Notes under the pieces: model-generated
Seen by the model: only the letters and a program-made list of their open reading frames with translations
What the model was told of the DNA's origin: nothing
Database searches by the model: none
Source of the DNA: Dehalococcoidia bacterium
GTDB taxonomy: Bacteria; Chloroflexota; Dehalococcoidia; Lucifugimonadales; UBA3495
Direction: 5' to 3'
DNA length: 64,000 nt
Assembly (NCBI GenBank): GCA_030740155.1
Contig: JASLXV010000069.1
Location: forward strand, 98,643 to 162,642
Made by a program: the position numbers and the translations under genes
Shown: piece by piece, positions 28,044-51,423 of the stretch
Layout: each line of letters starts with the position of its first letter
Position numbering within the stretch: position 1 is the first letter of the stretch

Positions 28044-28164
28044 ACCATTGTCTCCGGGCTGCCAATCCAGGCCCCGAGGCGGCTCATCGCGGGTTTCCGG
28101 TCCGCCTTCCGCCTGCCGGCAGGGGGATGTGGCGGATTCCGGGTCCGGCGTGAGCCGAAGAGCA

Positions 28165-28196
28165 GGGTTGACAGCCCTGTAGGCGCTGACTATGAT
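28165..28196 (+). promoter_or_regulatory. Sigma70 promoter with palindrome over -35 (copy 1)
   Basis: GGGTTGACAGCCC; TTGACA(28168)-17 nt-TATGAT(28191). Confidence 0.75.
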
Positions 28197-28685
28197 GCCG
28201 AAGGTGTGCAAATCGGTAGTATTCGAGCTAGCGCCGGGAATCTCTGCGCCTTGCGGGACCTCGAGTCCGGGGCCGTCAGTGCGGTTTGACGAGGGCGCAA
28301 GCGGGTTAATCCCTGGATGAATTCCAGTTCGCCGGTGGGACCTGCCGCCGATTCCGGGCGGGCGTTGGCTGGTTAAGAACCGGCCAACGGGTCCGGCCCG
28401 GCCATCCTTGGCCTCCAGGTACGGTCCTCCCGGGGCATGTGGCCCGGTTACCCAAGTGATGCGGGCTCCCGGAGCCAACAGCCGTCACCGAGGCTCCCTC
28501 CAGTTCAGCCCTTGCTGCCGTCTGTCGCAACAGGGGGCGCTCTGAGCACGATCATCGAGGCGATGCCCATTACACCGGTGCCATCGTCTAATGGGACACC
28601 GTTGCAGCTCGGGAGCGAGCTGCCGGGAAAGCCTTCGGCAGAGGCGCGGCCGGCGGTTGGCGGACAACTATAATCGGGAGACTCG

Positions 28686-29930
28686 ATGGATTCAGCATCC
28701 ACCACCGCCGGTGAGGTTGCCCCTTCCGAGCGAGGGCAGCGTTGGGTCATGCTGGCCGGCCTGTGGCTGGCCTACACCTCGTTTGGCCTGGTGTCCGGCG
28801 GCATACCTCCCCTCGTTGGACGGGTGAGCAGTGACCTGAACCTGAGCCGCTCGGCCATGGGCAGCGTCATGGGGGCCTGGCCCCTGGTCTACATAGCCGT
28901 GTCCGTTCCCGCCGGTGCTTTGATCGACCGCTTCGGGCTGCGGCGCTCTCTGGCCGTGGGAATCATCCTGGTGGCCCTCTCCGGGATACTTAGGGCCGTA
29001 GCGGTCAACTATGCCACCATGTTCTTGGCCGTCGCCATCTTCGGCGTGGGTGGGCCCTTCATCTCCATCGGCGCGCCAAAGCTCATCAGCGTTTGGTTCA
29101 ACCGTAAGGACCGGGGGCTGGCGATGGGCATCTACATGACAGCGTCGAACACCGGACGCATCCTGGCCCTGGCAACTGCCAACAGCGTCCTGATGCCCCT
29201 CTACCGGTCGAGCTGGCGGCTCACCATGGCCACTTACGCGGGGGTGGCGTTGCTGAGCGCGTTCCTCTGGTGGTTCATGGCCCGCGATCTGGAGCAATCA
29301 AGCGATTCAGCCAAGGGTTCCGGCAAAGACCTCGCCGCCAGCATGAAGGTGTTCCCCATGCTGCTCCGAATTGGGGTGGTGCGGATCGTCTTGGTCATCA
29401 CCGTCGGCTCCTTCTTCTTCAGCCATGGATTCAACAACTGGCTGCCTGAGATCCTTCGGGCCGGAGGCATGACCGCGGCCCAGGCCGGTTTTTGGGCGAT
29501 ATTGCCGATTGTGGTCGGGATCGCAACCACCCTGGTCGTCCCCATGGTAGCGAAGCCCGGCCGGCGCATACCGATGCTCGTGAGCATCTTCATGGCGGCG
29601 GCGGTGGCCGCGCTGATGGTGGCCACCACCACGGGAGCGCCGCTGACCCTGGGGCTGATTCTGCAGGGCGCCGCGAGCCGAGGGGTGATGCCTGTTATCA
29701 TGCTGATCCTCATGGATGCCCCCCAGGTTGGTCCCGAGCGCATGGGAGCCGCCGGCGGGCTGTACTTCACCGCAGGTGAGGTGGGTGGCGTGCTGGGACC
29801 GTTACTGCTGGGGGTCGCCGCCGACCTGACCGGAAGCTTCAGGGAAGGGTTGTTCATGCTGGTGGGTCTGAGCGTGGCTCTGGCTATCATCTCGTTTCGG
29901 CTGGGGTTCTCACTACGCCGGCAGGCCTAG
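28686..29930 (+). CDS. MFS transporter (CynX-like), copy 2
   Basis: Same length (414 aa) and long identical stretches with copy 1. Confidence 0.9.
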   Translation: MDSASTTAGEVAPSERGQRWVMLAGLWLAYTSFGLVSGGIPPLVGRVSSDLNLSRSAMGSVMGAWPLVYIAVSVPAGALIDRFGLRRSLAVGIILVALSGILRAVAVNYATMFLAVAIFGVGGPFISIGAPKLISVWFNRKDRGLAMGIYMTASNTGRILALATANSVLMPLYRSSWRLTMATYAGVALLSAFLWWFMARDLEQSSDSAKGSGKDLAASMKVFPMLLRIGVVRIVLVITVGSFFFSHGFNNWLPEILRAGGMTAAQAGFWAILPIVVGIATTLVVPMVAKPGRRIPMLVSIFMAAAVAALMVATTTGAPLTLGLILQGAASRGVMPVIMLILMDAPQVGPERMGAAGGLYFTAGEVGGVLGPLLLGVAADLTGSFREGLFMLVGLSVALAIISFRLGFSLRRQA

Positions 29931-30252: not shown

Positions 30253-31590
30253 ATGATATACGAATCGGAGTCGGGCGACATCCTGATCGCCCTCACCGGC
30301 GAGGCGCTTATCGCCCGCAAGCTAGACGTGTTCAAAGAGGACCAGTTTCTGGCATTGCGGGAAAAGCTGATCAATGCCGACGTCACCTTCGGGAATGCCG
30401 AGTGCCTTTTCGAGGACTACTCGGACAGTCCGAACACCTACGCCGGTGGAGGGTCCGGCAGAGGGACCTACATGGCGGCGCCACCCGAGAGCATCGAACA
30501 GCTTCAGTGGATGGGCATCGACATCGTGTCGACGGCCAACAACCACTGTTCGGATTTCGGGGAAGGCGGCGTTCTGACCAACCTTGAGTTCCTCAACGAG
30601 TACGGGATGGCCCACGCCGGGACGGGCGCCAACTTAACGGAAGCCAGGGCGCCGGGGTACCTGGACACGCCCAAAGGCCGCGTGGCCCTCGTTGCCGCCG
30701 CCGACTGGGGCCCCAGAGGCACCGGCGGCTCGCCTTGGCCGTTTCCCATGGGTGTAATGGCGGGAGAACAAGCCCCCTACTCTCTGGGAAGGCCCGGGTG
30801 CAACCTGATCCGGCACAAGCCCAGGTTCACCGTGCCCAAGGATGTGTTCGACTCGCTAAAACGCATGGCCGGTGAGCTACATTTCGAGAATCAAGCCGGC
30901 GCCGGTGAAACCGAGTTCCTCTTCATGGGAAGTGAAGTCGTCTTGGGCGAGGATTTTTATCTGAGCACGGTGGCCGAACTGGATGACCTGGAGGACAATT
31001 TCCGTTGGGTTAGAGAGGCCCGCCGCCAGGCCGACTGGGTGATGTTCAGCTTCCACAACCACGGCGCCAGCAGGTCCGCCGAGACTCCCTCGGACCACAC
31101 CAGGATCCTGGCCCACGGCGTCATCGACAACGGCGCCGACCTGTTCATTGGCCACGGCCCGCACCGGGACCGGGGCATCGAGATCTATAACGGCAAGCCC
31201 ATTTTCTACGCCTTGGGCGACTTCATCTTGCAGAACGATAGCCTCCTGTGGGCGCCCTACGACGTCATGAAGCGGTTCGGGCTGGGCTACGAGCACACCC
31301 CAGCCGATTTCTACGACGAGCGGATCCGGCACGGCTGGAACGACAAGGTGGAAGGCTGGGAGAGTGTGGCGGTTACCTGCAAGTACGAGGCAAAGCAGCT
31401 GAAGGAGATCCGGCTGTATCCCGTGGACCTCGGCATGGGACGTCCCCGGGGCCAGGCGGGCCGTCCGGTTCTGGCGCAGCCCGGCAGCGAGGTGAACCAG
31501 CGGGTGCTGGAGCGGTTCCAGAGCATGTCGGCGACCTATGGGACGACGATTGAAATCGAGAGCGGAGTGGGCGTCATCTCAGTGTCCTAA
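30253..31590 (+). CDS. CapA/PgsA-family metallophosphoesterase-fold protein (cytoplasmic)
   Basis: GNAE, STANNHCSDFG, HNH, IGHGPH, YALGDF; no signal peptide; AAGGAG SD. Confidence 0.88.
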   Translation: MIYESESGDILIALTGEALIARKLDVFKEDQFLALREKLINADVTFGNAECLFEDYSDSPNTYAGGGSGRGTYMAAPPESIEQLQWMGIDIVSTANNHCSDFGEGGVLTNLEFLNEYGMAHAGTGANLTEARAPGYLDTPKGRVALVAAADWGPRGTGGSPWPFPMGVMAGEQAPYSLGRPGCNLIRHKPRFTVPKDVFDSLKRMAGELHFENQAGAGETEFLFMGSEVVLGEDFYLSTVAELDDLEDNFRWVREARRQADWVMFSFHNHGASRSAETPSDHTRILAHGVIDNGADLFIGHGPHRDRGIEIYNGKPIFYALGDFILQNDSLLWAPYDVMKRFGLGYEHTPADFYDERIRHGWNDKVEGWESVAVTCKYEAKQLKEIRLYPVDLGMGRPRGQAGRPVLAQPGSEVNQRVLERFQSMSATYGTTIEIESGVGVISVS

Positions 31591-35843: not shown

Positions 35844-36671
35844 AACGTCCGTCTCCTGGCCGCCCAAGATTCCATCAGAATATCCGCCAGAATATCCGCG
35901 AATTGTCTTCCTCCCCTAACCCCACCTTCGTACCCGCTACCTTGCTGGAAACGCAATCATGAACTCCACCCCGGCGTAGCCTCAGGGGTCGACGGTGCCG
36001 CCCCCTCTTCCACCAACTCTGCCGCTTCGAAAGGGAAACAGATCCTGTCGGAGAATGAGCAATGGTGCCATCGCAACTATTTCGCCCAACCCGATGAGGC
36101 GTTACCGGTTCGCATACCAAATTCCCTCCTCGGCGGTCGCAATAAGGCAGGACGATTCGACACGAAGAGCCTCGTCTTCCGGCCCTGGACTCCACCAAGG
36201 AGAGGTAACATCGTCCTTGGTTTAATCCAGACCTCGGAGCCAACGTGGCGTTGCGAGTCGTCTTCGGCGCAGCGCCATTGCTTGGGGACGGTTGGGCGTC
36301 GCACCCTTGATGGACCCAGGCGTCCGATTGTTTGGGCCTACGGGGGGTGGACCCGGAACAGGACCAGAAAGGGCGCCGCCTGCTTTTCGCTCCTTCTTCA
36401 CAATGTGTTCACAATTTGACGTTACTATCCAAGAAAGGTGCCCGGCAGTGTGCCTGTACCCTTCCGGGAGAGTGGTGTTCCCCTAACGAGGTGATTCGGT
36501 CCATGTTGGGGTTCGAGGGCAGGTTGCCGGCAGAACCTTCACCTGGGCTCCCTTGGCTGCGGAAGCTCCCGCTTGCTCTCCAGTGGCGGAGAAGATAAGG
36601 TTGCCTTGACTGAATTTCAGGACCCTTAAACCTGACATTCTCCCAGACCTACGATAAAGGGGGCAGCCATT

Positions 36672-38342
36672 GTGGTTGCGATAGAGGTGCTTAATCCGGT
36701 GGCGCAACGGCTTGCCGATTTCCGTAGAGCTGCGGGCGCCCCTCGCCCATCGAACTTGGAAGGGAAGCGCATTGGGCTGCTGTGGAACTCGAAACGCGGT
36801 GGCGACGTGGCGCTGGAAACCATCGGAACAGCCCTGCAGGACCGGTTTCCGGGGACGGCCCTGGTGAAGGTCTGGGGAGTTATGGGCAATCCTGAGCCAA
36901 CGTTCACCAAGGTAGTGCGGGAGTGTGATGTTGTCATCGGGGCCACGGGCGATTGAGGCTACTGCACGGTCAGCCTTGTGCAAGACCTGATTAAGATCGA
37001 GGGGAGAGGGATTCCTACAGTAGCCATAGTTGCCAAATCCTTCGAGGCCCAAACCAGAGCATCAGCGCATGGACTCGGATTGCTGGGCTTTCCTTACGCC
37101 ATGGTGAAAGACTGTTTGACGGGGCTGTCTCCGGAGGAGATCACGAGACAGGCCGGCGAAGCTGTCCCAGCGGTAATCGAGGGACTCACAAAGAGCCTCG
37201 GCGACGAGGCGGTCAGCATCGACGTCCTTCGGCCTGAACCCACGGCAGCGGAGCGGTTCGAGGCGGGGGACCATTTCAAGGCTTTCCAGGCAATCAACAG
37301 AGCGTTCCTGGAGCGCGGCTGGGCCGATGGGTTTCCCCTTTGGCCTGCAACGCGAGAAGCCACTGACGAGATGTTAGCTGGGACTACCCGGCCGCCTCAG
37401 GACATCGTCGGGATCCTCAGCCCCGGTCACGGCTTAGCAACGGTGGAGAAAATCGCGGTAAATGCGGTTATGGCCGGATGCTCGCCGTCGCACATGCCGG
37501 TCCTGATTGCCATTGTCGAGGCGGTTTCAAATCCGCCATTCCCTCTTGGGCCAGTGTCCTGCTCCACCGGCCCCCATGCTCCTCTCGTGCTGATCAACGG
37601 CCCCATTGCCAAACAGCTTGGAATCAATGCTGGCGGCTGTGCGCTGGGACCGGGCGCCCAGTCGAAAGTCAACATTGCTATCGGGAGGGCCCTGAGGCTC
37701 ATCATCATGAACATTGGCCACGCCTACCCCGGGCAGGGCGACATGGATACTCTGGGGAGCGCTTGTAAGTTCAGTCTATGCCTCGCGGAGAACGAAGAGG
37801 CCAGCCCGTGGCCGCCGTACCACGTCACTCAAGGGTTTTCTCCCGAGTCCAGTACGGTGACCGTGTTTGGCATCCGCGACATGATAGACATCAATGAAAT
37901 GTGGAACCATACCGCGGAGGGGATCGTTACGACGGTGGCGGCGTTCGCCTCGATACCGGGCGGAGAGTACTTGACAGGCCGCTTCGCCGAGAACGACTCG
38001 ATACCGCTGATCGCCTGGCACGCTTTACTGATTCTATGCCCGGACCATGCACGGTCTATTTATCGGAGCGGGTGGACCAGGGAGCACGTGGAAGAGTTTT
38101 TCTATCATCGGGCCCAGGCGCCTCTGAAGAACCTGCTCAGCCGGGTGAAGGCGACTCCCTCGGAGATTCGACCGATTTATCGCTGGACCTTGGACGCGCC
38201 ACCCGAGATGACCATGCCGGTGCTCCAGTCACCCAAGGACCTGCACGTGGTGGTAGCCGGCGCCTCCAGCAGCGCCGGCAAATCTCAGTACGTGCGGCTC
38301 ATTGGGCAACCGTCGGCCACAGTGGAGATTATGGCCTGGTGA
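36672..38342 (+). CDS. UGSC-family selenoprotein (Sec at TGA 36954-36956, U-G-Y-C) fused to its conserved partner domain
   Basis: ORFs 36672-36956 and 36978-38342 are in frame across one TGA: VIGATGD-U-GYCTVSLVQDLIKIEGRGIPTV; partner motifs GWADGFP, EKIAVNAVMAGC, IGRALRL. Confidence 0.85.
36957..36982 (+). other. Candidate bacterial SECIS hairpin
   Basis: TGCAC-GG-tcag-CC-tt-GTGCA stem starting 6 nt after the TGA. Confidence 0.5.
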
Positions 38343-38593
38343 ACGAAAGGGTTGCGGGGCAGTCAACGGCGTGCGCTGGACAAAGCATGTAGAGGCCACC
38401 CTCGCGATGTCTGAGATGGCCCGCTGGCTGGCCCGACTGGCTGCGCAAGATGATGAATATACTATGATGTCCCCGGCTGGACCGCTCCCGCCGGAGGTCC
38501 CACCGTTGTCTGAAGGTGGGCCATGGGATGCCAATTGCCGGCTCCGCCCCAAACCTGCGCCGTTCTTCGGCGCCCCGGATGGAGGGTGATTCC

Positions 38594-39916
38594 ATGACGT
38601 GCTCAAGCTGTGAGAGGGAAAACCGTCGAGACGCCAATTACTGTGACGCTTGCGGAATGAAACTAGCCGCACCCATGAATGGCGACGGCGGGATCGCAGG
38701 CAAAACGGGGCCGCTGGACGGCATTCGGGTAATTGACTGGACAGCGTACCAGTTCGGCCCGGTATCCACCATGATGTTGGCGGACCTGGGCGCCGAGGTC
38801 ATCAAGGTGGAGTCCTTGAATGGCGACCCCGGCAGGAATACCAACCGGATCAGCCAATTGCCCTCGCAACTCCCTGCCGGCGTCAGCGCCTATTTCGAGT
38901 CTTTGAACCGGCAGAAGAAGAGTATCGCCCTGGACCTCAAGAACCCAAAGGGTGTCGAAGTCATGTACCGGCTGGTGGCGAAATCGGACGTATTTGTCCA
39001 GAACTTCCGCCAAGGTGTCGCGGAACGGTTGGGCTTGGGATATGAAGACCTGGTCGAGCACAACCCGAAGATCGTATACGGCGCCGCTACCGGCTACGGC
39101 CCGAAGGGCCCCGATTCCCGTAAGCCCGCGTTCGCGCTAACCGGTGAAGCCAGGTCTGGGTCCCTGTGGTGGGGCGGCCCGGACGATGATCTACCCTACA
39201 ACCTTGGAAGTATTGCCGACCAGATGGCCGGGATAATGCTCTCCTACGGGATATTGGGCGGTCTGGTCGCCAGAGAGAGGCTTGGAATTGGCCAGAAAGT
39301 CGACGCGTCCCACCTCGGAGGCATGATGTGGCTGGGTGGCAAACGGTATGGCATGGCCTTGATTACGAAGAACGCGCCGCTGCGTCAGACCCGCGCCTCG
39401 GCCCGCAATCCCCTGTGGAATTACTACAAGTGCAAGGACGGCCGGTGGATAGCGCTTTCCATGAATCAGACCGACCGCTATATGCCTTTATTCTGCAAAG
39501 CCATCAGCAGGCCTCACCTTGCCGAAGACGAGCGGTTCAACAACATGGCGGCCCTCCTCGAGAATAGTAAGGAGTTGATCGACATCCTGGACGACATATT
39601 TGCCACCAAGACCCAGGGTGAATGGAAAAAAGTGCTGTCTGAAGCGGAAGGGATCATCTGGGAGCTGGTTCAGGACGTGTTTGACCTGCCGGATGACCCC
39701 CAAGTAATTGCGAATAACTACATCGTCGACTTCGACCACCCTGCGCTGGGTCCCTCCAAATGGCTGCAAACTCCGGTGGGCTACAGCAAGATGCCACTGT
39801 CTACCAGAAAGATGGCTCCGGCCCACGGCGAGCATACAGCGGAGGTCCTGATCGATATGCTGGGGTACGACCGGGATGACATCGCGACGCTACGTGATGA
39901 AAGAGTCATTTTATAA
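38594..39916 (+). CDS. Family III CoA-transferase (CaiB/BaiF) with N-terminal zinc ribbon
   Basis: CSSC...CDAC N-terminus; PLDGIRVID, LADLGAEVIKVE, NRQKKSIALDLK, NFRQG, catalytic D in IADQ, AP.HGEH. Confidence 0.9.
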   Translation: MTCSSCERENRRDANYCDACGMKLAAPMNGDGGIAGKTGPLDGIRVIDWTAYQFGPVSTMMLADLGAEVIKVESLNGDPGRNTNRISQLPSQLPAGVSAYFESLNRQKKSIALDLKNPKGVEVMYRLVAKSDVFVQNFRQGVAERLGLGYEDLVEHNPKIVYGAATGYGPKGPDSRKPAFALTGEARSGSLWWGGPDDDLPYNLGSIADQMAGIMLSYGILGGLVARERLGIGQKVDASHLGGMMWLGGKRYGMALITKNAPLRQTRASARNPLWNYYKCKDGRWIALSMNQTDRYMPLFCKAISRPHLAEDERFNNMAALLENSKELIDILDDIFATKTQGEWKKVLSEAEGIIWELVQDVFDLPDDPQVIANNYIVDFDHPALGPSKWLQTPVGYSKMPLSTRKMAPAHGEHTAEVLIDMLGYDRDDIATLRDERVIL

Positions 39917-40151
39917 AGCCAGGCGCCGCAGCCGGGTTTGATCGCATCGGCACTAGATCCATGGCTTCGGGCGGCTCCACTACCTGGGGAAACTACCACT
40001 TGCTCTCCAGAGTTGGAGAGGATACAGTTGCCCTGACCAATTCGCTGAACAGTTAACCCTGACATCTACCCTGGTCCACGACACGACCGGGTGTTTTGAA
40101 TTCCTGGCTCCACGTAGGGAGCCCGGGAGGCGCGGGGCCGAGGAGCGGCAA

Positions 40152-41414
40152 ATAGACGCACGTACCCAACTGTCCCGGCTGGCCCGCATCCGGACCTTCG
40201 ATTCTCTGCGACTATTCCGGGACTACCGTTACCTGTGGGCGGGCAACTTTTGTGCCAACTGCGCCCAGTGGCTTCAACTACTTTCGGTAGGCTGGCTGGT
40301 ACGGGACCTCACCGTTTCTTCAGGGTCTTCAGCGCTTCTGGTGGTAAGCGCCGGGGGATTGAACACCCTTCCTATATTATTCTTGGGTCCCTGGGGCGGA
40401 GTCCTGGGCGACCGCCTCAGCCGCAGGAACCTGGTGATGGCGTTCCAAGCCTTCATGGCCTGCGCGGCCCTCTTATTCGCCTTCCTGGTGTGGTCTGGGC
40501 ACGTGGAGTGGTGGCATGCCTACGTGTATGTGATCATCGGCGGTTCATGCCGGGCCGTCACCCACTCCATGAGGCTGGCGTTGGTGGCGAATACCGTTCC
40601 CAGGGAATATGTTGTCAATGCAGTTGCCGCCAACGTGTTCACGATCGGGGGGACCCGCATGATCGGCCCGTTTATCGGTGGCTTCCTGATCGCTACTCTG
40701 GGGTTCTTCTGGAACTTCGTTTTCGAGTCCGCGTTGTATGCGGGCACAGTGTTGGCTTTTTGGCACATGAGGACACCGTACTCCTTCCGAAGCGCTTCCA
40801 CGGTGAGGGTCTCCCCGCTGGCCAGCTTGAAAGAGGGGCTCAGGTACGTGTGGAAGGGGGAAAGGGTGATCTTCAACCTCATTGTGCTGGGTTTCATCCC
40901 CAACGCAATCCTCCATCCGGTCCTGTTCCTGCTGCCCGTATTCACCGCCGAGGTGCTGCACGGCGGTCCCGGCATCGGAGGGATCCTCCTGTCAACCACC
41001 GGGCTCGGCGGTTTCATCGCCGCCCTCGCCATAGCCTCTGGCGGGTTCCAGTCCAGGAGGGGATTCATCTGTCTGGGGGCGATAGCCGCGAGTTCCATCT
41101 TCGCCATTCTCTTCTCCCAGGCCAGCTGGGTGGTGGCGGCGATGCTGCTGGTCGGGTTGATGTCGTTCGCCCAGGCGACCTTTCGCACGACTTCGGGCTC
41201 AGTGATCCAGCTCATGACGCCCGATGCGCTACGGGGACGGGTAACCTCGTTACAGCAGTTTGGCCAGGGGTTCTTGATTCTAACCACCTTGCTCATCGGC
41301 TGGTTCGCAGACTTGACCACGGTCGTCATCGCGATCATGAGCATCGGCGCCATGGGTTTGGGCTTGGCGATTTTCTCCGGCATCGCCCTCCCCCGGGTGC
41401 GCCAGCTAGCGTAG
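40152..41414 (+). CDS. MFS transporter (EntS/MefA-like), probable non-canonical start
   Basis: Frame stays open upstream of 40341 and encodes TM1 (RDYRYLWAGNFCANCAQWLQLLSVGWLV); G.LGDRLSRR; PDALRGRV; AGGAG then ATA at 40152. Confidence 0.8.
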   Translation: MDARTQLSRLARIRTFDSLRLFRDYRYLWAGNFCANCAQWLQLLSVGWLVRDLTVSSGSSALLVVSAGGLNTLPILFLGPWGGVLGDRLSRRNLVMAFQAFMACAALLFAFLVWSGHVEWWHAYVYVIIGGSCRAVTHSMRLALVANTVPREYVVNAVAANVFTIGGTRMIGPFIGGFLIATLGFFWNFVFESALYAGTVLAFWHMRTPYSFRSASTVRVSPLASLKEGLRYVWKGERVIFNLIVLGFIPNAILHPVLFLLPVFTAEVLHGGPGIGGILLSTTGLGGFIAALAIASGGFQSRRGFICLGAIAASSIFAILFSQASWVVAAMLLVGLMSFAQATFRTTSGSVIQLMTPDALRGRVTSLQQFGQGFLILTTLLIGWFADLTTVVIAIMSIGAMGLGLAIFSGIALPRVRQLA

Positions 41415-41499
41415 CGTAAGGGCATGGGAAAGAAGAAGCCGGTCTCGCAAATGCAGTCCAACTGACTGAACCCACCTCAGGGCTGCGCCCGGCCAGTGG

Positions 41500-42837
41500 C
41501 TAGGGCCGGGTTGCCAGCTTGTCCATCAGGGCGCCGATCCGAGGCATCTCCTCCAGGGCCATGAGCATCTCCGCGGTTTCTTTAGCAGCATCCGCTCCCA
41601 GGACCGGCTGGACGTTGGCCAGGTACTTGGCCCGGACCTCTTCCAGGGCCACGGGGCGGCCGGCGTCACCGGTGGCTACTTCGATGGGCTGGACCACCTC
41701 CTGGGCCGGCCAGCGGGCCGTCAAGACCCCGTGGGGCCGGGAATCCGGGTCCTCGGCGACGGCGGATTTCCGGAGCAGGTCTTGGAGTTCTCGGCGCTGA
41801 AAGCTCTCGTCGGAGAAGGACCATTTGGTGACCCGCCCGTCCAGCAGGGCGCAGGCTACGGGGAACTGGTAGCTGAACTTGCCCGACACGTCGCCCGTGG
41901 GCGCCACCTGGAAGTAGGGCTCGAGGTGGGGGACTCGAACTTCCAGGGAAGAAAGTTCTGACATGGGTAGAGGAGCGCGTCCTTGAAGCCTCAACGCGGC
42001 GTCGATGGCTCCCTGGGCAATGGAACCGCAGGGGTACTTCTTTAGGCACCAGGTGCTGACGATGTGTCCCGCGCCCAGTTCCTTCAGGGCGGTCCGGTAA
42101 TCCACCCGGTCCATATCCCCGGCGGCCACCACACTGTAGAAGAAACCCAGGGGAGCATCCAAAGCGTTGGGGTTGGCGGTAAAATCGTCCCTGGCCAGCT
42201 CAGCGGCCAGAACCCCGGCCTGGGAGGCGATGCCGGCGTGCAGGGGTTTGGCGTGGGTGCCGAAGTTGCCGATTATGCCTCCGGCTTGGGAGGCGGCGAT
42301 GCCCCAGGCGTAGCGCATACGGGTGGAGTTCAGGCCCATGATCTTTGCCGACGCCGTGGCCGAGGTGAGGGGGCCGAAGACGCTGGTCATGTGCAGGCCG
42401 TGAAGCTGGTCCGCCTTGCGCGGAACCACTTGGCCCAGGGCCACGCCTACCTCGTAGGCGGCCACGTAGGCCTCCAGGAGCATCCTACCGCTGCAGTCCA
42501 GGTACTCTCCCGTAGCCAGGGCAGCGGGCAGAATCACCACGCTAGGGTGGCCGAAGCCGCCGGTGTCGTCGAAGTCCAGCGAGTGGCCCAGTGTGCCGTT
42601 GACCAAGGCGGCCAGCCAGGTGGTAGTCTTCTGGGGCCGGCCCAGGATGCTCGCCTCGGCGGCAGGGTTGCGGGCCAGGCGGCCACTCAGAATTCGCTCC
42701 GGCGCCTCACCGATGCCGGCAAAGGCCACCCCTACCTGGTCCAGGATAGCCGCCTTGGCAGCCTTCGCCTCCGAGGGAGAGACTGCGCTGAGCTTAACGT
42801 CCGCTACGTATTGGGCCAGGGTTTCGCCGAGTTCCAT
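41500..42837 (-). CDS. MmgE/PrpD family protein
   Basis: NGTLGHSLDFDD, GHP, KPLHAG, KKYPCG, KFS. Confidence 0.92.
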   Translation of the reverse strand: MELGETLAQYVADVKLSAVSPSEAKAAKAAILDQVGVAFAGIGEAPERILSGRLARNPAAEASILGRPQKTTTWLAALVNGTLGHSLDFDDTGGFGHPSVVILPAALATGEYLDCSGRMLLEAYVAAYEVGVALGQVVPRKADQLHGLHMTSVFGPLTSATASAKIMGLNSTRMRYAWGIAASQAGGIIGNFGTHAKPLHAGIASQAGVLAAELARDDFTANPNALDAPLGFFYSVVAAGDMDRVDYRTALKELGAGHIVSTWCLKKYPCGSIAQGAIDAALRLQGRAPLPMSELSSLEVRVPHLEPYFQVAPTGDVSGKFSYQFPVACALLDGRVTKWSFSDESFQRRELQDLLRKSAVAEDPDSRPHGVLTARWPAQEVVQPIEVATGDAGRPVALEEVRAKYLANVQPVLGADAAKETAEMLMALEEMPRIGALMDKLATRP

Positions 42838-42986
42838 TGGTCCGCCTCCTTCCATCAGTCGTGGGGCCGAGACCGGCGCCGCCAGTGCTCATCGGAATAA
42901 GCCGGGGATCTCCCAGATCAGATGGATTCCACCAGCCGGGTGACCCCGTGGAATGCCACAGCCTATATAACTGCATCCCGAGCCCG

Positions 42987-44285
42987 TCAATACTGCACGC
43001 CCGTCAGCTTTCCGAATCCCAGAGGGCTGGTCGACGCGTAGATGTAGCGCAGGGACAGAGGGAGGCTGCCCGCGGCATCTAGCTCTGGAACCGACAGCGT
43101 CGCGCCGCCAAGGACCTCACCGGCCGGGGGCAGGTTTATCTTCATCTCATAGTTCCCGGTGCTGACGATGGCATCGGCCTCGGGGACGAAGTGGACGAAG
43201 CCGGGGTCATCAGGGGTCAGGGCCATCTCGGGGCTAAGCAGGGTAGTCATGATTCCGGCGTTCTCGCACTTCTGGCACAGCATCATAATATCCACGCCGG
43301 AGTGTCCATCGCCGATCCAGGTCATCACGACCCCGTCGGCGCTCAGCATCTTGAGCAGCTTGACCCCGCTGTCCAGAGTGCGCTCCTTTTCCCACACCGC
43401 CGTGCGGCCGTAAAACCACAGCACCAGGCCCAGGAAGTTCAGGTCCACCCCGTGGCGGCGGTACATCTCCCGGACTATCGCGTGGTTCTGGTAGATGTAA
43501 GAGGAGTCCCGGGAGTTGGCAGGTCCCATAAAGCTGCTGTACATCGCGCCATCCATCATCTCGTTGGGGTGGAGGAGGACGGGCTGCCACCCGATCTTCT
43601 CGCCGTATACCCACCGGTTCACGTGTACCTGGCAGGCGTAGGCCACCCTGGGCAAGGAGGGATCTACCTTGGCCAGTTCGAACACCTCCACCTCCTCCGG
43701 CTCCTGCCCCGTGGTCGCCGAAGCCAGGTAATCGGCCACCCTGAACCCCGCGGCCCTAGCCGCGAGGTTGTACTCCTGGGAATACTTGGAACCGCCTATC
43801 AAGTCCACCGTCTCCAGGTCCGCCTGCTCCTCCGGCGAGAAATCCACCCTCCCCTTTAGCTGTAGCACCAGGTTGATGGTGCTTGAAAAGGGAGTGTACC
43901 GGGCACCGGCGCCCCACATATCGATGATGCCGTCACGCCAGTACACGCCCTCGCCGGGGGACGGCACCCCGGTGGTGATCAAGGCCATGCCTTCCAGCCG
44001 GTGGTTCCTCCCCTGGCCCACGGTTACCGTGGGTCCGATAACGGCGGGGAAGACCGTGCCGGGGCCGGAGACCTTGTGCCTGGGCTCCACCGCATCCAGA
44101 ATATTGATGATGCGGGTATTGTCCCCGGGCCGCGCCACGTTCACTTCCACATCGATGAAGTGGCTGTCTTGCAAAACCTTCCCGCGAAGCTCTTCCTTGC
44201 TGACGTATAAGACACCGCCGGAGAAGCGGGTGGTGTTGGAGAAGACAATGTCCTTGACCCGAAAAGTGGCCTGCTCAAGCCTCAC
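42987..44285 (-). CDS. Glycine/sarcosine/betaine reductase component B large (alpha/beta proprotein) subunit homologue
   Basis: LE...F.VKDI.F, ARPGD.TRI...LDAVEPR.K, IIDMWG.GA.YTPFS, LHPNEMMDGA, HGVDLNF.G, EADAIVSTGN; GGAGG SD before GTG 44285. Confidence 0.88.
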   Translation of the reverse strand: MRLEQATFRVKDIVFSNTTRFSGGVLYVSKEELRGKVLQDSHFIDVEVNVARPGDNTRIINILDAVEPRHKVSGPGTVFPAVIGPTVTVGQGRNHRLEGMALITTGVPSPGEGVYWRDGIIDMWGAGARYTPFSSTINLVLQLKGRVDFSPEEQADLETVDLIGGSKYSQEYNLAARAAGFRVADYLASATTGQEPEEVEVFELAKVDPSLPRVAYACQVHVNRWVYGEKIGWQPVLLHPNEMMDGAMYSSFMGPANSRDSSYIYQNHAIVREMYRRHGVDLNFLGLVLWFYGRTAVWEKERTLDSGVKLLKMLSADGVVMTWIGDGHSGVDIMMLCQKCENAGIMTTLLSPEMALTPDDPGFVHFVPEADAIVSTGNYEMKINLPPAGEVLGGATLSVPELDAAGSLPLSLRYIYASTSPLGFGKLTGVQY

Positions 44286-44496
44286 TTCGTTTCCTCCCTT
44301 GCTGGATGATCTTTCCCAGGGGTGCGCCACACGAGCCCACCCGAAGATGAGAATCGCCCCGGCCCATCTTTCGAAAAGGGGGCGAGGGGTATTCTCTCCC
44401 GTTCACGGTCCGTCCTAGTCTGAATGCGGCATCATACACCCGGATAGATTCCGGCCGCCCCTGATTCGGAAGTCTGGCTCTTCGGGACAGGCTGCA

Positions 44497-45825
44497 CTAC
44501 CGCCAGGAAGCCGCCGCTCTCTGGAACACCGTGGGGCCCTCCACCCGGGTTTCCAGGGCTTCCAAGGCCTCCTGAACAACCTGTTTACGGAACTTCTTCT
44601 CCTCGCCAAGGGAGTAGCTGGGGTCGCCGACAGGATAGGGAACCGCCTTCCCCTCCACGATGCGGCTGGCGCCGACTCCCTCCGCCAGGTTGTAGAGGGG
44701 TGTTATGAGGGCGGTGGGAAGACCGGCCCGCTCCAACTCCTTGGCCAGCGTAGCTCCGCTACGCGTCCCCGTCCCTCAAGTGGCGGTGAGGATTATTCCC
44801 TCAACTCCCGCCGCCGTAAGCTCAGTCGCCATCTCCTGCCCGAACTTCCTGAAGCTGACCAGGGGTCCCATGTTGCCGGTGGTGCTGTAGAGGTAATCGT
44901 GCAGTCCACCTATGGCCCCCTCCTTTTCCAGGTCCCGGGCGACATCCAGGGGGACCATGCGATTGGGCTCGGCGCTGGCCGCCGTGGTGTCGTAGCCCCC
45001 ATGGATGCTCTGGTACTTCTCGGAGGACATGGAGGGCTCATTGGCGATGTCAAACTTTAGCCACTTGCTCGCCCAGCTCGACTCCAGCTTATCCGGGTTG
45101 CCTCGTTGGACTATGCCGCCTTCGGTTACCAGCGCTATGGTAGCCTTGGCTGGATTCTCAAGAGGGGGCGCCGGGGCCACATCATCGTACTGAGGCAGGG
45201 GCCATTCCGTATTGGGGGCCTCGCCTCTCAGCTTCCCCAGCAGCATCGCGACGGCCCGTTCGGCCGCGGTCTTCTCGGAGAACTCGTTCTCGCGGCGGCC
45301 CGTGGGCAGATAGCCTTCCTGGTTGGCCGGCCCCAGTTTCTCCTGGCCGGCAAGCTTCACCGCCAGTCTTGCCATCACCGACATGGCATCGCCCATGCCC
45401 GCGGCGGTCTCACTGGTAGAGACCATCAGTGCCTTGCCCCGAAAGACCGCCGCCGCCGGGCTGTCCCGGTGAACCCCGGTCACCGCCGGCACTTTCAGTC
45501 TCTCTCGCACTGCGGCGCAGACTTGACCGCAGGCGAGGCCGTACCGCCCGGCGCCGAAAGCCGGCCCCGCTACCACCACATCCGGGTTGAACTGCTCAAT
45601 GAGTTCCACTACCTTACCGGTGGCTTCCTCGGCATCCTGGGTCATGCGGTTGTCGCCGCAATATACCGTCCCCACCACCTCACCGGCCTCGCCCAGTGCT
45701 ATCTTCAGGGCGGCCCCCGGCCCCACGGGTCCGTCTCTGCCGGCCGGCGTCGCGCTGGCTTGCTCCTCACCGCCCGCACCGGCGAAAAACTGGTTTAGAT
45801 AGTGGACAACCCTCAGTGTGGCCAT
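44497..45825 (-). CDS. Glycine/betaine/sarcosine reductase selenoprotein B homologue (Sec at TGA 44778-44776)
   Basis: VVHYLNQFFAG.GGEE, GPAFGAGRYGLACG, HGGYD, PNRMVPLD, STTGN; in-frame read-through LTAT-U-GTGTRSGATLAKELERAGLP joins the 44497-44736 ORF. Confidence 0.92.
44748..44764 (-). other. Bacterial SECIS-like hairpin
   Basis: GCGTAGC-GGA-GCTACGC perfect 7-bp stem 11 nt 3' of the UGA. Confidence 0.75.
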
Positions 45826-46113: not shown

Positions 46114-48465
46114 ATGAAACAGCCTCGGTTCCACGTAGTGGGGAAGGTAACCCCCCGGAAAGACGGCATCGCCATCGTGACGGGGCAGGAACGCTACTCG
46201 GTCGACATCCGCCTGCCGCGAATGCTGCATGGGCGCATTCTCTCCAGCCCCTACGCCCACGCCCGCGTCAAGAGCATCGATGTGAGTGAGGCCGAGGCGA
46301 TGGGCGCGGTCTGCCTGACCTTCGCGGAGATCCCTCAGGTCCGCTACAACGAGCGTATCATCACCGTCCCTGCGGCGCTGCACAAGGACCACTACGTTCT
46401 CGCCGACAAGGTGCGGCGTATGGGAGAGGCGGTCGCCGCCGTGGCCGCGGAAACCGAGGCCCTGGCCGAGAAGGCCGTACGGGCCATCAAGGTTGAGTAC
46501 GAGGTCTTGCCGGTGATCACCGGCCCCGCCGAGGCCATGAAGCCCGGCGCGGAGCCCATCTACGATTCGGTGCTCTGGGGCAGCGAGCTGGTGAAGATCG
46601 AGAGGAACATCGCCTGCACCCGGAACATCGAAGAAGGGAACGTGGACCGGGCCTTTGCCGAAGCGGACCTGGTCGTTCAGGGAACGTTCACAACCCCCAA
46701 GATTTATCACATGCAACTGGAGCCCAAGTCTGCGGTCTGCCGCCCGGAGAGCGACGGCGGCCTCACCGTCTGGGCGGCAACCCAGTCCATCCACAACGTT
46801 CGGATTTTGCTGGGCGAGATATTCGGCATTCCCTTCAGCAAGATCGATGTGAGGCGCGTGCCCGTGGGTGGCACTTTCGGGTCCAGCATCCAGATGAACC
46901 CGCCCATCCCCATCTGCGCCGCCCTGGCGCTGAAAGCCCGCCGTCCGGTGAAGCTGGAACTCACGCGGGAAGAGGATATGCACGATCACTCCAAGTATCC
47001 CACGGAGATTCGGCTCCGGTTGGCGGCCGGGCGGGACGGCACGCTGACCGGCGCGGAAATGGAGCTGACCACCGACATAGGGGCCCACAACATTCAGGCT
47101 TACTCTTTTCTTGGCGTGTGTCCCGGATGGCTGGTCTCCTTGTACAGATTGCCCAACCTGCGCTACCGGGGAACGGCCGTCTACACGAACAAGGCGCCCT
47201 CCTGCGCCATGCGGGGGTTTGGCAACCCTCAGGTCACCTTCGCGGTGGAGTCGCTGGTGGACGAGCTGGCGGAGAGGCTGAGAATGGACCCAATCGAACT
47301 CCGGCTCAAGAACTACATCAGCCTTGGGGATACGTTCTGGGGGCAGGGGCCGCTGGTACGCTCGATCGTGCGGAGCGACGGGGTGCCAGAGCTGCTCCGC
47401 CGCGGCGCCGAGATGATCGGCTGGGACCAACGTCCTGCGCCCGGATCGCAAACGGGACGGTACCGCCGGGGCGTAGGCCTGGCCCGTGGCTTCCACACCT
47501 CCAGCGCCGGCGCGCCGCGGCCGGGGGACGTGATCGACTTCTCCGGAGCAATGGTCAAGGTCAACACCGACGGCTCGGTGGACGTGGTGACGGCGCTGAT
47601 GGACCACGGCGGCGGCACGCTGGATGCAGTGGCCAAGCTGGTGGCCGAGGAGCTGTGCGTGCCGCTGGATAAGGTCAACGTCGCCCCCGCCGGGACCCGG
47701 TCGACGGTCTACGACGTCAACACCCACGCTTCACGGGGGGTCTATGCCGGCGGCGGCGCCGCGTTGGAGGCGGCACGGCTGGTGCGGAAGGAGCTGTTAG
47801 AGGCGGCTGCCGGCTATCTGGACGTGATGCCGGCCGCGCTGGCCCTCGAGCCCGGCGAGGCATCAGGCCAGGGGGTCGCCGCCGCTCCATCGGTTCCAGA
47901 CCGGAGTATGACCATCGGCGAGATCGCCACCCGGTGCTGGGCCGAGAGCCGGAGGACCATCGCCACCGTGACCAGCTACCGGGCGGTCAACTGCCCGCCG
48001 GCCTACGTCGCCGTGTTCGTGGAGGTGGAGGTCGACACCTGGACCGGTGCGGTGCGCACTACGCGTGCCGCGACGGGCTGCGACTGCGGGACGGTGATCA
48101 GCCCCGACCTGGCCGCCGGGCAGCTCGAGGGAGGACTGTTGCAAGGCGCGGGCTTTGCTCTGTACGAGGACAACGAATGGGACTCCAGCGGGCAACTGGC
48201 GTCGGCCGGCTATATGACCGACACCAAGACGCCGGGCTTCAGCGAGAGTGCGTATCCGGATAACCTTGCCGTCTATTTCGCGCCGACCTACGAGCCCAGC
48301 GGCCCCTTTGGCGCCAAAGGCATCGGAGAGGCAGCGACCAACCCGGTGGCGGCGGCCTATGCCAACGCCATCCACAACGCCACCGGCATCCGCTTCTACG
48401 GGCTGCCGGTTACGCCGGAGAAAGTCCTGGCGGCCCTGGCTGGTCAGAAGGAGCGTTCCGCGTGA
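46114..48465 (+). CDS. Xanthine dehydrogenase family molybdopterin-binding subunit (1)
   Basis: HMQLEP, GGTFGSS, AMRGFGNPQ, GQLEGG, GAKGIGE. Confidence 0.93.
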   Translation: MKQPRFHVVGKVTPRKDGIAIVTGQERYSVDIRLPRMLHGRILSSPYAHARVKSIDVSEAEAMGAVCLTFAEIPQVRYNERIITVPAALHKDHYVLADKVRRMGEAVAAVAAETEALAEKAVRAIKVEYEVLPVITGPAEAMKPGAEPIYDSVLWGSELVKIERNIACTRNIEEGNVDRAFAEADLVVQGTFTTPKIYHMQLEPKSAVCRPESDGGLTVWAATQSIHNVRILLGEIFGIPFSKIDVRRVPVGGTFGSSIQMNPPIPICAALALKARRPVKLELTREEDMHDHSKYPTEIRLRLAAGRDGTLTGAEMELTTDIGAHNIQAYSFLGVCPGWLVSLYRLPNLRYRGTAVYTNKAPSCAMRGFGNPQVTFAVESLVDELAERLRMDPIELRLKNYISLGDTFWGQGPLVRSIVRSDGVPELLRRGAEMIGWDQRPAPGSQTGRYRRGVGLARGFHTSSAGAPRPGDVIDFSGAMVKVNTDGSVDVVTALMDHGGGTLDAVAKLVAEELCVPLDKVNVAPAGTRSTVYDVNTHASRGVYAGGGAALEAARLVRKELLEAAAGYLDVMPAALALEPGEASGQGVAAAPSVPDRSMTIGEIATRCWAESRRTIATVTSYRAVNCPPAYVAVFVEVEVDTWTGAVRTTRAATGCDCGTVISPDLAAGQLEGGLLQGAGFALYEDNEWDSSGQLASAGYMTDTKTPGFSESAYPDNLAVYFAPTYEPSGPFGAKGIGEAATNPVAAAYANAIHNATGIRFYGLPVTPEKVLAALAGQKERSA

Positions 48466-49943
48466 ACGAGGATTTCGCTCGAGCGGCCGGCATGACGAAC
48501 TCGCATATCCTGGTGCCCGACTTCGATTACCTGGAACCCGCGTCGTTGGAGGAGGCGGTGGCCCTGCTGACCCGGCACGGGGATGGAGTCCGGGTGCTGG
48601 CCGGCGGCACCGACCTGATCGTCCGGATGAAGCTGGAACGGCTGGCTCCCAGATACTTGCTCAGCATCCAGAAGATTCCCGGTCTTGGTGGAATAGTGTC
48701 GGAGAACGGCGGTGTACGCATCGGCGCGCGCACCCCCATTCGAGAGTTGCGCAACGACCCCCGAGTCCGGGCCTGGTACCCGGCGCTGGCGGAGGCGTGC
48801 GCCGCGTTCAGCTCAACGCCGGTCCAGGTGATGGGCACCATTGGCGGGAACCTGTGCAACGCCTCACCGGCGTCCGATTGCGCTCCGCCGCTGATCGCCT
48901 TCGGCGCGGAGGCGGTTATTTTTGGTCCGGGGGGTGAGCGGTGGCTCCCGCTCGACGAGTTCTTCCTGGGACCCGGCCGGACGGCGCTACGAATGGGCGA
49001 ACTGCTGGTCGCGGTTGCTCTCCGGCAGCCTCGGCAGGGAACCGGAAGTGCGTTCCTGAAGGTCTCCCGGGTGGCCGCCGACATCGCCAAGGTAAACGGG
49101 GCGTTCACAGTCGTGCGGGAGGGGGACCGTGTCGTCGACTGCCGGCTGGCTTTTGGGTCGGTGGCGCCAACACCAGTCCGCGCGCGTGGGGCGGAGGCGT
49201 TTCTCACGGGACGGGCCTTCGGCACGGAACTGGTGGCCGAGATAGCCGGGGCCGCAATGGAAGAGGTCTCGCCCATCGATGACGTGCGCTCGGCCGCGTG
49301 GTACCGCCGGGAAATGGTCCGGGTGCTGACCCACGACGGCCTGCACCGGGCCTGGGAGCAGGCCTCGAAAGAGCCGCCCGACTCGCCTCTTGAACCCAAC
49401 GGGGCGGCCTCAAGTTCACCGGGAGGTATCGAATCGCGGCAGGCGGCCGGTGTCCGGGCGGCGGCTCAACGGCACGGCATCGACCTGACCTTGAACGGCG
49501 AGCGGCGCCGGGCCTGGGTGATGCCGAACGACCTGCTGCTGAACGTGCTTCGGGAAGACCTGGCGTTGACCGGCTGCAAGTACGGGTGCGGCATCGGGGA
49601 GTGCGGCGCCTGCACGGTCCACCTGGACGGGGAGCCGGTGCTTTCGTGCCTGGTGCCGGCCGTGGCGGCCGATGGCGGCGAAATCGTGACCGTGGAGGGG
49701 CTTCAGAAGCCGGACGGCGAGCTGGACCCTCTCCAGCGAGCGTTCATCGAGCACGGGGCCTTCCAATGTGGTTTTTGCACTCCGGGCATGTTGATGACGG
49801 CCAAGAGCCTGCTTGGTGAGAATCCGCATCCAACGGAGGAGCAGGTGCGGGACTACTTGAAGGGTAGCTTCTGCCGCTGCACCGGGTACGCCGGCATCCT
49901 GCGCGCCGTGATGAGCTGCGCGGCCTCGGAGGGCGGCCAGTGA
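48462..49943 (+). CDS. Fused FAD-binding (CoxM-like) and 2[2Fe-2S] (CoxS-like) subunit
   Basis: AGGTDL, TIGGNLCNASPASD, PIDDVR; then GCGIGECGAC, QCGFCTPG, CRCTGY. Confidence 0.93.
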   Translation: MNEDFARAAGMTNSHILVPDFDYLEPASLEEAVALLTRHGDGVRVLAGGTDLIVRMKLERLAPRYLLSIQKIPGLGGIVSENGGVRIGARTPIRELRNDPRVRAWYPALAEACAAFSSTPVQVMGTIGGNLCNASPASDCAPPLIAFGAEAVIFGPGGERWLPLDEFFLGPGRTALRMGELLVAVALRQPRQGTGSAFLKVSRVAADIAKVNGAFTVVREGDRVVDCRLAFGSVAPTPVRARGAEAFLTGRAFGTELVAEIAGAAMEEVSPIDDVRSAAWYRREMVRVLTHDGLHRAWEQASKEPPDSPLEPNGAASSSPGGIESRQAAGVRAAAQRHGIDLTLNGERRRAWVMPNDLLLNVLREDLALTGCKYGCGIGECGACTVHLDGEPVLSCLVPAVAADGGEIVTVEGLQKPDGELDPLQRAFIEHGAFQCGFCTPGMLMTAKSLLGENPHPTEEQVRDYLKGSFCRCTGYAGILRAVMSCAASEGGQ

Positions 49944-50008
49944 TGCCCGCGCTGCGGCCTGAGCCATGAATAGACCGCTAACCCATACGAGGAACAACTT
50001 CCTCTCGC

Positions 50009-50043
50009 TCCCCCTTTGTTAAAGGGGGATAATAGGGGATTTT
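50009..50043. repeat. Palindromic intergenic repeat (CCCCCTTT..AAAGGGGG family)
   Basis: TCCCCCTTTGTTAAAGGGGGA..AGGGGATTT. Confidence 0.55.
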
Positions 50044-50065
50044 GCCCGCTACGACGGAGGCACTA

Positions 50066-50935
50066 ATGCTGCCAGGGTTTGACCTATTGATGCCGGAAAC
50101 GTTGCCTGAAGCGCTCGACTTGCTGGCCGAAAGCGCGCGCGAGGTCACGCCGGTGTCGGGTGGCACGAATCTGATCGTGGATATGCGGAGCGGACGCCGC
50201 CGGCCCGGCACGCTGATGAACATCGCCGGGATAAAAGAGCTGGGCGGCATCCGGCGTGAGGACGGACACCTGGTCATCGGTGGCGGCGTCACCATTGCCG
50301 ATCTGTTGGATGAGCCCCTGGTGGCCCAGCATGCCTCGATTCTGAAAGAAGCCGCCTCGGTTTTCGGAAGCCCCCTGGTGCGGAACCGGGCCACGGTGGG
50401 GGGTAACTTAGCGGACGCCTCACCGGCGGCGGACCTGGCTCCCCCCTTTCTGGCCCTGGACGCAGAGGTCGAGCTGGCCAGCGCGGAAGGACAACGCCGG
50501 GTGCCGCTGGAGGAGTTCATGGTTGGGGTGAGGGAGACACTCCTTCAACCTCAGGAGCTTCTGGTTGCGGTGCGCTGCCCCGTGCCGCCGCCACACAGCG
50601 CGGGGGCTTTCTGCAAACTGGGGCTACGAAAGGCGGATGCCATCTCGGTGGTAAGCGTCGCCGTGATGCTGGAGGGCGATGGCGACGGCCGCTTCCGCCA
50701 GGCGCGCATCGCAATGGGCGCGGTAGCTCCTCGTCCCATTCGAGCCCACGCCGCCGAAGACCTGTTGCGCGGCCGGCCGTTTGATCCCGCAACCATAGCC
50801 GAGGCTGCCCGCCTGGCGTCCGAGCCGGCCAGCCCCATCGACGACATCCGGGGCTCGGCAGCCTATCGACGGCGGATGATAGGCGTGCTGGTGCGGCGTC
50901 TGCTGACCGCGGCCGCCGCCGGTGCGCGCAATTAG
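50066..50935 (+). CDS. Xanthine dehydrogenase family FAD-binding subunit
   Basis: SGGTNL, RNRATVGGNLADASPAAD, PIDDIRGSA.YR; GGAGG SD. Confidence 0.93.
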   Translation: MLPGFDLLMPETLPEALDLLAESAREVTPVSGGTNLIVDMRSGRRRPGTLMNIAGIKELGGIRREDGHLVIGGGVTIADLLDEPLVAQHASILKEAASVFGSPLVRNRATVGGNLADASPAADLAPPFLALDAEVELASAEGQRRVPLEEFMVGVRETLLQPQELLVAVRCPVPPPHSAGAFCKLGLRKADAISVVSVAVMLEGDGDGRFRQARIAMGAVAPRPIRAHAAEDLLRGRPFDPATIAEAARLASEPASPIDDIRGSAAYRRRMIGVLVRRLLTAAAAGARN

Positions 50936-50949
50936 ACTGGGGAGAAGCG

Positions 50950-51423
50950 ATGCAATCAATGGTTGTGACGTTCAACATCAACGGGCGCGAGCACCGGGTG
51001 GCGCTGGCCCCCAACGTGACCCTGCTCCGTGCCCTGCGCGATCTGGGCTACACCGATGTCAAGAACGGCTGCGAGAAAGGGGACTGCGGAGCATGCGCCG
51101 TGCTGTTGGACGGCAGGGCCGTCAATAGCTGCCTGGCGCTGGCCTGGCAGGCTGGCCAGTCGCGGATCGTCACCAACGCCGGCCTGGGGACGCCGGACAA
51201 CCCCCACACCCTCCAAGAGGCTTTCGCCGATGCGGCGGCCGCCCAGTGCGGTTACTGCCCGCCGGGCATGATCATCGCGGCGAAGGCGCTGCTGGACCGG
51301 ACCCCGCACCCTGATGAGGAAGAGGTCCGGGAGGCCCTCTCGGGCAACCTGTGCCGCTGCACCGGATATGGGCCGATCCTCGAGGCGGTGCTGGCCGCCG
51401 CCGCGGAGGGAATCGGCGCATGA
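50950..51423 (+). CDS. Xanthine dehydrogenase family 2[2Fe-2S] subunit
   Basis: GCEKGDCGAC, QCGYCPPG, GNLCRCTGY. Confidence 0.93.
   Translation: MQSMVVTFNINGREHRVALAPNVTLLRALRDLGYTDVKNGCEKGDCGACAVLLDGRAVNSCLALAWQAGQSRIVTNAGLGTPDNPHTLQEAFADAAAAQCGYCPPGMIIAAKALLDRTPHPDEEEVREALSGNLCRCTGYGPILEAVLAAAAEGIGA

Follow-up and report, generated by a model that had tools for sequence, protein, structure and literature searches.

The window analyzed here, a 64,000-nucleotide stretch of a Dehalococcoidia bacterium assembly (GCA_030740155.1, contig JASLXV010000069.1), carries at positions 36672–45825 two TGA-interrupted genes that a preliminary description had combined into a single selenium-dependent catabolic module. 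We consider it rather probable that these 9 kb instead hold two convergent gene sets that work separately, and that one of them, grdB-grdE(-prpD), feeds a GrdA and a GrdD-less GrdC encoded elsewhere in the genome. The two interrupted genes were confirmed, with selenocysteine (Sec) predicted as U95 in GD-U-GYC of a UGSC/Unknown_1 fusion protein and as U350 in TAT-U-GTGTRS of a GrdB-type protein. So was their convergence around a CaiB coenzyme A (CoA)-transferase, a major facilitator superfamily (MFS) transporter, and an MmgE/PrpD protein, although a GrdE-family gene (42987–44285) also lies between them. GrdA, GrdC, and GrdD are indeed absent from the window, but the claim that canonical reductase partners are lacking does not hold genome-wide, as GrdA, GrdC, thioredoxin, and TrxB are encoded elsewhere; GrdD was not found.

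GrdC (C54:21598-23046; 655 bits against a cut-off of 450) and the genome's single GrdA, itself a Sec protein (190 against 130), lie on contig C54, adjoining another grdB-grdE pair. With thioredoxin and TrxB homologues also present, GrdA, GrdC, protein B pairs, and a thioredoxin system all occur in the genome, as in glycine/sarcosine/betaine reductase, and the idea that the UGSC fusion replaces GrdA or thioredoxin is thus not supported. The genome encodes six GrdB/GrdE pairs, one PrdB-like gene, 14 PrpD-like loci, and 67 CaiB-like loci; a contig scan with the single window GrdB returned only two weak, irrelevant loci. Among 41 genomes, GrdB occurs in 12, GrdA in 11, and GrdC in the same 11, the one GrdB genome lacking both (G022) being 67% complete. 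UGSC is distributed differently, occurring in 34 of the 41, including all 24 family members, and GrdB is not matched in 14 of these. An orthologue of the window GrdB was found in none of 202 other family genomes and in one of 400 order genomes (G415, where it is the only one among 36 genomes of that family). It is 67% identical and is accompanied by grdE and an MFS gene, but its 17.5-kb contig carries no UGSC, CaiB, or PrpD gene, and GrdA and GrdC are encoded elsewhere in G415. A single module is not supported by these distributions.

The window GrdB (44497–45825, minus strand; 442 amino acids, Sec codon at 44776–44778) matches the selenoprotein B family with 502 bits (TIGR01918, cut-off 65) and has Sec at the family position. 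It falls under the cut-offs of the GrdB (462.6 against 602), GrdF (486.6 against 800), and GrdH (423 against 775) models, forms its own clade separate from five paralogues, and, unlike glycine and sarcosine reductases, has neither the GrdB nor the GrdF substrate motif given in the accessible text of PMC9751293. UGTGTRS stands in place of UxxCxxC, so both cysteines after Sec are lost, as in 15 of the 26 GrdB genes of the 12 genomes. The GrdE/GrdI/FarE-type partner (PF09338; 42987–44285, minus strand) lacks both pyruvoyl-motif cysteines, with Met and Asn at the columns of the two processing cysteines of the A. noterae protein; the pyruvoyl group is described as deriving from GrdE residue 242 (PMC9908766). 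According to the available text of PMC10838667, loss of the GrdB CxxC and of the partner's processing cysteines are both known for fluoroacetate reductase FarB/FarE, betaine GrdI shares the latter loss, and a single A/C system is supplied by several protein B complexes. Because its cysteine losses match those of FarB/FarE and GrdI, the window protein B would act on a carboxymethyl donor that brings its own leaving group, and its substrate is probably not glycine. As to a substrate other than glycine, the preliminary description, which suggested C-N or C-S bond cleavage, is probably right. The resemblance to FarB/FarE of Cloacibacillus porcorum MFA1 extends to an operon that pairs an orphan protein B with an MFS gene and to a Sec subunit without CxxC and a partner without the two processing cysteines that are predicted to feed a shared GrdA/C (PMC10838667, in the part available). 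Unlike the Far system, the window locus has no radical SAM (S-adenosylmethionine) gene, its partner scores 127 against a cut-off of 675 with the FarE model, and the host has COX1 and no detected GrdD, acetate kinase, or Pta.

The MmgE/PrpD-family protein (41500–42837, minus strand) is far from the 2-methylcitrate dehydratase equivalogs (16–30 bits against cut-offs of 458–950), and its closest solved relatives are iminodisuccinate epimerase (E 2.5e-41) and cis-aconitate decarboxylase (4e-38). The epimerase likeness of this co-oriented gene product is a weak hint of an N-carboxymethyl imino acid substrate. Processing of the product by CaiB and PrpD is not supported, as neither is near the orthologue and PrpD occurs in none of 81 further GrdB loci. 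The neighbors of four other UGTGTRS loci (L066–L068, L072) were considered as a guide to the substrate and rejected; their flanks are not conserved except for an MFS gene in two, and they belong to a different clade.

These features can be arranged into a tentative pathway modeled on glycine, betaine, and fluoroacetate reductase chemistry. In the grdB-grdE(-prpD) set, Sec350 would attack an X-CH2-COO- substrate at C2, the group X leaving without help from a pyruvoyl Schiff base; candidate donors are betaine-, thetin-, halo-, or N-carboxymethyl-type compounds. The Sec protein B is predicted to pass the carboxymethyl group to the single GrdA, which thioredoxin would re-reduce. In the least certain step, GrdC would take the acetyl group on a FabH-type Cys262 and hand it to CoA, and the resulting acetyl-CoA would be oxidized by a cell that respires oxygen. 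The second set, UGSC fusion/CaiB/MFS, is one of 28 UGSC loci, and its UGSC domain would supply the catalytic part of a separate enzyme formed with Unknown_1 rather than reduce GrdB.

The lack of a detected GrdD distinguishes the system from glycine/sarcosine/betaine reductase. GrdD was not found in the source genome by Pfam, NCBIfam, or tblastn, and no match passed the cut-off in the 41 genomes, which gave only weak PlsX-region matches, or in 401 genomes of the phylum. GrdC occurs in 11 of the 41 and 16 of the 401, amounting to 26 distinct GrdC-bearing genomes of the Chloroflexota lineage (several of them in one contig), and GrdD was found in none of the 26; for G415 this covers the fetched stretches only, and the same search recovered GrdD in three of three named control records. 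Acetate kinase and Pta were both absent from the 12 genomes of this order, Pta was present in 2 of 27 GrdC-bearing genomes overall, and COX1 was found in five of five genomes tested. From 45 full GrdC sequences, kept after dropping matches of fewer than 380 columns, unterminated matches, and duplicates, the tail beyond the last conserved position measures 1–16 residues in the 42 that are GrdD-less, against 35–38 in the three that are GrdD-paired. All 42, of which 21 come from genomes and 21 from metagenome contigs where the absence of GrdD is only local, thus lack a tail of ~30 residues. The GrdC also differs from that of glycine/sarcosine/betaine reductase in that the Gln of the ExxxP motif is mostly replaced by His. 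One cysteine, Cys262, is invariant in all 45 and aligns with the catalytic cysteine of FabH. The model of the C54 GrdC (predicted local distance difference test [pLDDT] 91.6) has FabH/thiolase-fold chains as its top Foldseek matches (E 1e-10), so that this protein has both the fold and the nucleophilic cysteine of the FabH (KAS III)/thiolase superfamily. Similarity is limited to a template modeling score of about 0.5 by target and 13–18% identity, and CoA use by GrdC is only predicted. Work by Kohlstock et al. in 2001 reportedly placed the acetyl-phosphate-forming cysteine on GrdD; the available text of PMC3091704 is silent on this point. Because GrdD, acetate kinase, and Pta were not found, we infer that stand-alone GrdC probably yields acetyl-CoA.

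Pairs of grdC and grdA without grdD recur across Chloroflexota (C54:21598-23761 in the source genome, L002; L049–L059; L174–L188), and ten metagenome contigs have a compact grdE-grdB-grdC-trx-grdA order with no GrdD match (L106 without the grdE end). Compact operons in high-GC contigs (L108, L110, L120, L123, L124, L130, L135, L145, L148, L150) carry the motif UGTGTRC and often follow an IclR regulator or a dimethylglycine/sarcosine-dehydrogenase-like gene (GCV_T + DAO), neighbors that hint at sarcosine or glycine-derived substrates. Elsewhere, two tandem grdC paralogues accompany grdA, trx, grdE, and grdB without grdD (L168:2531-5439), and a truncated 161-residue GrdB N-terminal fragment adjoins grdA-grdC (L087:7530-8012, in G023).

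Several observations weigh against the proposed arrangement. As to the product, PlsX, a GrdD homologue, is present in the genome; acetate kinase occurs in 5 of 27 GrdD-less genomes; the FabH-type cysteine is equally present in GrdD-paired, acetyl-phosphate-forming GrdC and hence is no proof of CoA transfer; only three GrdD-paired GrdC controls were compared; and one grdC (L088, in G018) appears to be split by insertion-sequence genes. The same GrdA/GrdC route might then end in acetyl phosphate or acetate, either because the housekeeping protein PlsX or another, unrecognized one replaces GrdD or because the acetyl-enzyme is hydrolyzed. PlsX does score weakly with the GrdD profile, and protein C of characterized enzymes is described as making acetyl phosphate (PMC9908766). 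This outcome nevertheless seems unlikely to us, given the missing acetate kinase and Pta in all 12 genomes of the order, the location of plsX among fatty-acid genes, and the lack of a PlsX- or GrdD-like gene in the compact operons.

As to the separateness of the two sets, a 13-kb block of G415 (C33:4625-18036, L193) holds three grdB-grdE pairs, grdA, grdC, and a UGSC/Unknown_1 fusion, in the order grdE-grdB-grdA-grdC, grdB-grdE, UGSC fusion, grdB-grdE, and UGSC with Unknown_1 lies within 3–10 kb of grd genes in L116, L077, and L079. There may thus be a functional tie between the families, with UGSC enzymes, for example, feeding the same GrdA/GrdC. Furthermore, prpD stands beside grdB in none of 20 relatives' or 81 other loci, the context comparison of close orthologues rests on one orthologue with long flanks, and all genomes are uncultured assemblies, the source genome (G000) being 93.7% complete and 7.65% contaminated. 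The G415 block, the UGSC genes near grd genes in L077, L079, and L116, the homology of the two Sec domains described below, and the integrity of the 9.5-kb block in 16 marine DNA runs (each covering at least 92% of the stretch; without 3 possible sources, 13 runs from 7 studies remain) speak for the module as first conceived, in which the Cys-less GrdB would either pass its carboxymethyl group to the UGSC fusion or be reduced by it again, with CaiB and PrpD acting on the product. We regard it as improbable. Beyond the co-variation of GrdB with GrdA and GrdC, the many UGSC genomes without GrdB, and the context of the G415 orthologue, linkage of UGSC to GrdB is not conserved, as 2 of the 25 grd loci fetched from relatives contain UGSC where a crude uniform model predicts 0.92 (P ~0.23). 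Of the 81 further GrdB loci, a good many of which are short, 1 contains UGSC, 33 GrdC, and 23 GrdA. In the source genome, a UGSC gene lies within 10 kb of one of the six GrdB genes, and chance is ~10% per locus. With 8000 candidates scored per search, databases held 23 GrdB clusters at 66–90% identity and 3 PrpD clusters at 82–90%, but no UGSC fusion above 57%. The preliminary description had itself named grdA, grdC, and grdD elsewhere in the genome, without conserved linkage to UGSC genes, as evidence against the module; this is largely what was seen for GrdA, GrdC, and the linkage, whereas GrdD is missing and the G415 cluster holds a UGSC fusion. A route like that of D-proline reductase, in which a thiol or thioredoxin cleaves the selenoether directly without GrdA/GrdC and PrpD-like and CoA enzymes perhaps use the reduced acid, would fit the separate GrdB clade, the PrdB-like gene without PrdA, and the distance of the window genes from grdA/grdC, but is equally doubtful in view of the full-length GrdB architecture with GrdE rather than PrdB/PrdA, the GrdA and GrdC in both genomes holding the clade, and the loss of both resolving cysteines.

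The reported resemblance of the two Sec regions was borne out. In HHalign, a profile built from 27 of the 28 UGSC paralogues aligns to one built from 100 GrdB rows with 95.7% probability (E 8.5e-9) over 98 columns, Sec on Sec, and with 70.8% when the Sec motif is masked, against at most 2.4% for 30 column shuffles, 2.7% for the reversed profile, and at most 6.2% for other families. By profile comparison, then, the UGSC and GrdB Sec domains are remote homologues beyond chance. Unknown_1 showed no homology to GrdE, GrdB, or GrdC (0.1–0.4%). The window fusion (36672–38342, plus strand; 556 amino acids, Sec codon at 36954–36956) scores 123.5 bits with PF24696 (cut-off 25) and has the UxxC motif and the Unknown_1 partner of that family, here a 370-residue C-terminal domain; it falls under the NF041046 equivalog cut-off (100.3 against 125). 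Its AlphaFold model (pLDDT 94.3) predicts an N-domain (about residues 27–179) with an alternating five-strand alpha/beta, flavodoxin/Rossmann-like fold. This matches chains of that type (best Z 11.9, root-mean-square deviation 3.3, 127 aligned), none of the solved structures being a clear relative, and thioredoxins are not among the structural matches listed; nor is any fold match listed for Unknown_1, which was seen only within the whole-fusion model. Sequence searches of solved structures with the fusion and with GrdB gave nothing significant. The same family and fusion were described in 2008 with a thioredoxin-like fold suggested (PMC2398784), and the available text of PMC13188914 still terms UGSC function uncharacterized. 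The window protein differs from the accessible part of the 2008 account in its UGYC motif, its predicted fold, its remote homology to GrdB/PrdB, and the 28 full UGSC copies in one genome. These comprise 9 intact fusions, 2 frameshifted, and 17 stand-alone genes, all fused to or adjoining Unknown_1; the frameshifted fusions (C20:48941-50528, also with an in-frame TAG, and C61:8319-9906) are pseudogenes or assembly errors.

Both window genes are predicted selenoproteins on the evidence of genome machinery, paralogues, and homologues. A check for Sec machinery found SelA, SelB, a TGA-containing SelD, and tRNA-Sec all encoded in the genome. One TGA stands at the Sec site in all 28 full UGSC matches, the C20 copy having its TAG in addition. 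In 119 aligned homologues of the fusion, U95 is matched by Cys in 36, Thr in 3, and no residue in 80, of which 68 begin at query positions 100–109. An independent DNA run differed by nine letters over the stretch, none at either TGA. A hairpin whose 3-nt loop begins with G lies 18 nt 3′ of the UGA in seven of seven GrdB/PrdB-type genes, the selenocysteine insertion sequence-like hairpin of the window grdB (44748–44764, minus strand) sharing its offset with six paralogues. The hairpin of the window UGSC gene is weaker and off register, and at neither window TGA did stability exceed that of shuffles (z 0.63 to -1.28). The PrdB-like selenoprotein of the genome (UPRC; C59:42819-43547, L007) is followed by an amidohydrolase and has no PrdA neighbor.

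Reading TGA as Sec joins two short pairs of open reading frames into the 556- and 442-residue proteins, and the window as such is a modest annotation fix of two truncated selenoprotein genes. Between the UGSC fusion, whose codon use is atypical (score 0.07 against 0.36–0.49 in eight fused paralogues), and the minus-strand genes lie the CaiB/family III CoA-transferase (38594–39916, plus strand), with an N-terminal zinc ribbon and a start placed by its ribosome-binding site, and the MFS gene (40152–41414, plus strand), whose frame is open 5′ of the first GTG (40341) and which may start at an ATA near 40152. An upstream element of ~110 nt is common to the UGSC (36522–36661, plus strand, with TGAC repeats ~13 bp apart) and MFS genes (39961–40109, plus strand) and is likely an operator or promoter. 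The genome holds three further long matches (C32:18832-18942, C7:14246-14357, C13:20795-20890) and five partial ones, none 5′ of grdB; one copy sits between selD and a divergent gene. The element has no Rfam match, Rfam otherwise gave nothing relevant, and a promoter/terminator scan matched at chance level. From RNA runs, a handful of short contigs of low depth fell on the two halves, with some spanning the grdE-prpD gap, too thin to show transcription or operon structure. Two xanthine-dehydrogenase-family molybdoenzyme sets (46114–53750) are divergent from grdB, and a similar gene lies beside grdB in L067 and L075. Farther away, two similar tandem CynX-like MFS genes (26862–29930) precede a CapA/MslH-like protein (30253–31590).

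Both selenoprotein families, the UGSC fusion, and the Cys-less orphan protein B are already known. Glycine-type reductases are described as anaerobic, acetyl-phosphate-forming, and ATP-yielding (PMC10298544, PMC9908766, bioRxiv 2022.07.06.499078, in the parts available), and Dehalococcoidia reductases in anoxic springs are mentioned in the accessible text of PMC9751293. A literature search that could not reach the greater part of the subscription literature, the classic work on protein C among it, turned up no account of GrdD-less systems or of reductases in SAR202. Homologue names label the source lineage as Chloroflexota of a SAR202-like kind. The homology of UGSC to GrdB provides a mechanistic lead for a long-unassigned family. 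More broadly, it is conceivable, although we put this forward with some reserve, that oxygen-respiring marine SAR202-type and soil bacteria use the GrdD-less system as a carbon entry, with numerous paralogous Sec protein B pairs removing the carboxymethyl groups of varied osmolytes and imino acids with N-, S-, or halogen linkages, stand-alone FabH-fold GrdC delivering acetyl-CoA, and UGSC/Unknown_1 acting as a second protein-B-like family, distantly homologous, which might supply this GrdA/GrdC as well. Should bacteria with cytochrome oxidase consistently lack GrdD, acetate kinase, and Pta, the reductase would have a different product and purpose there, GrdC would have a role of its own, and dissolved organic compounds of sea and soil might have a sink that has been overlooked.

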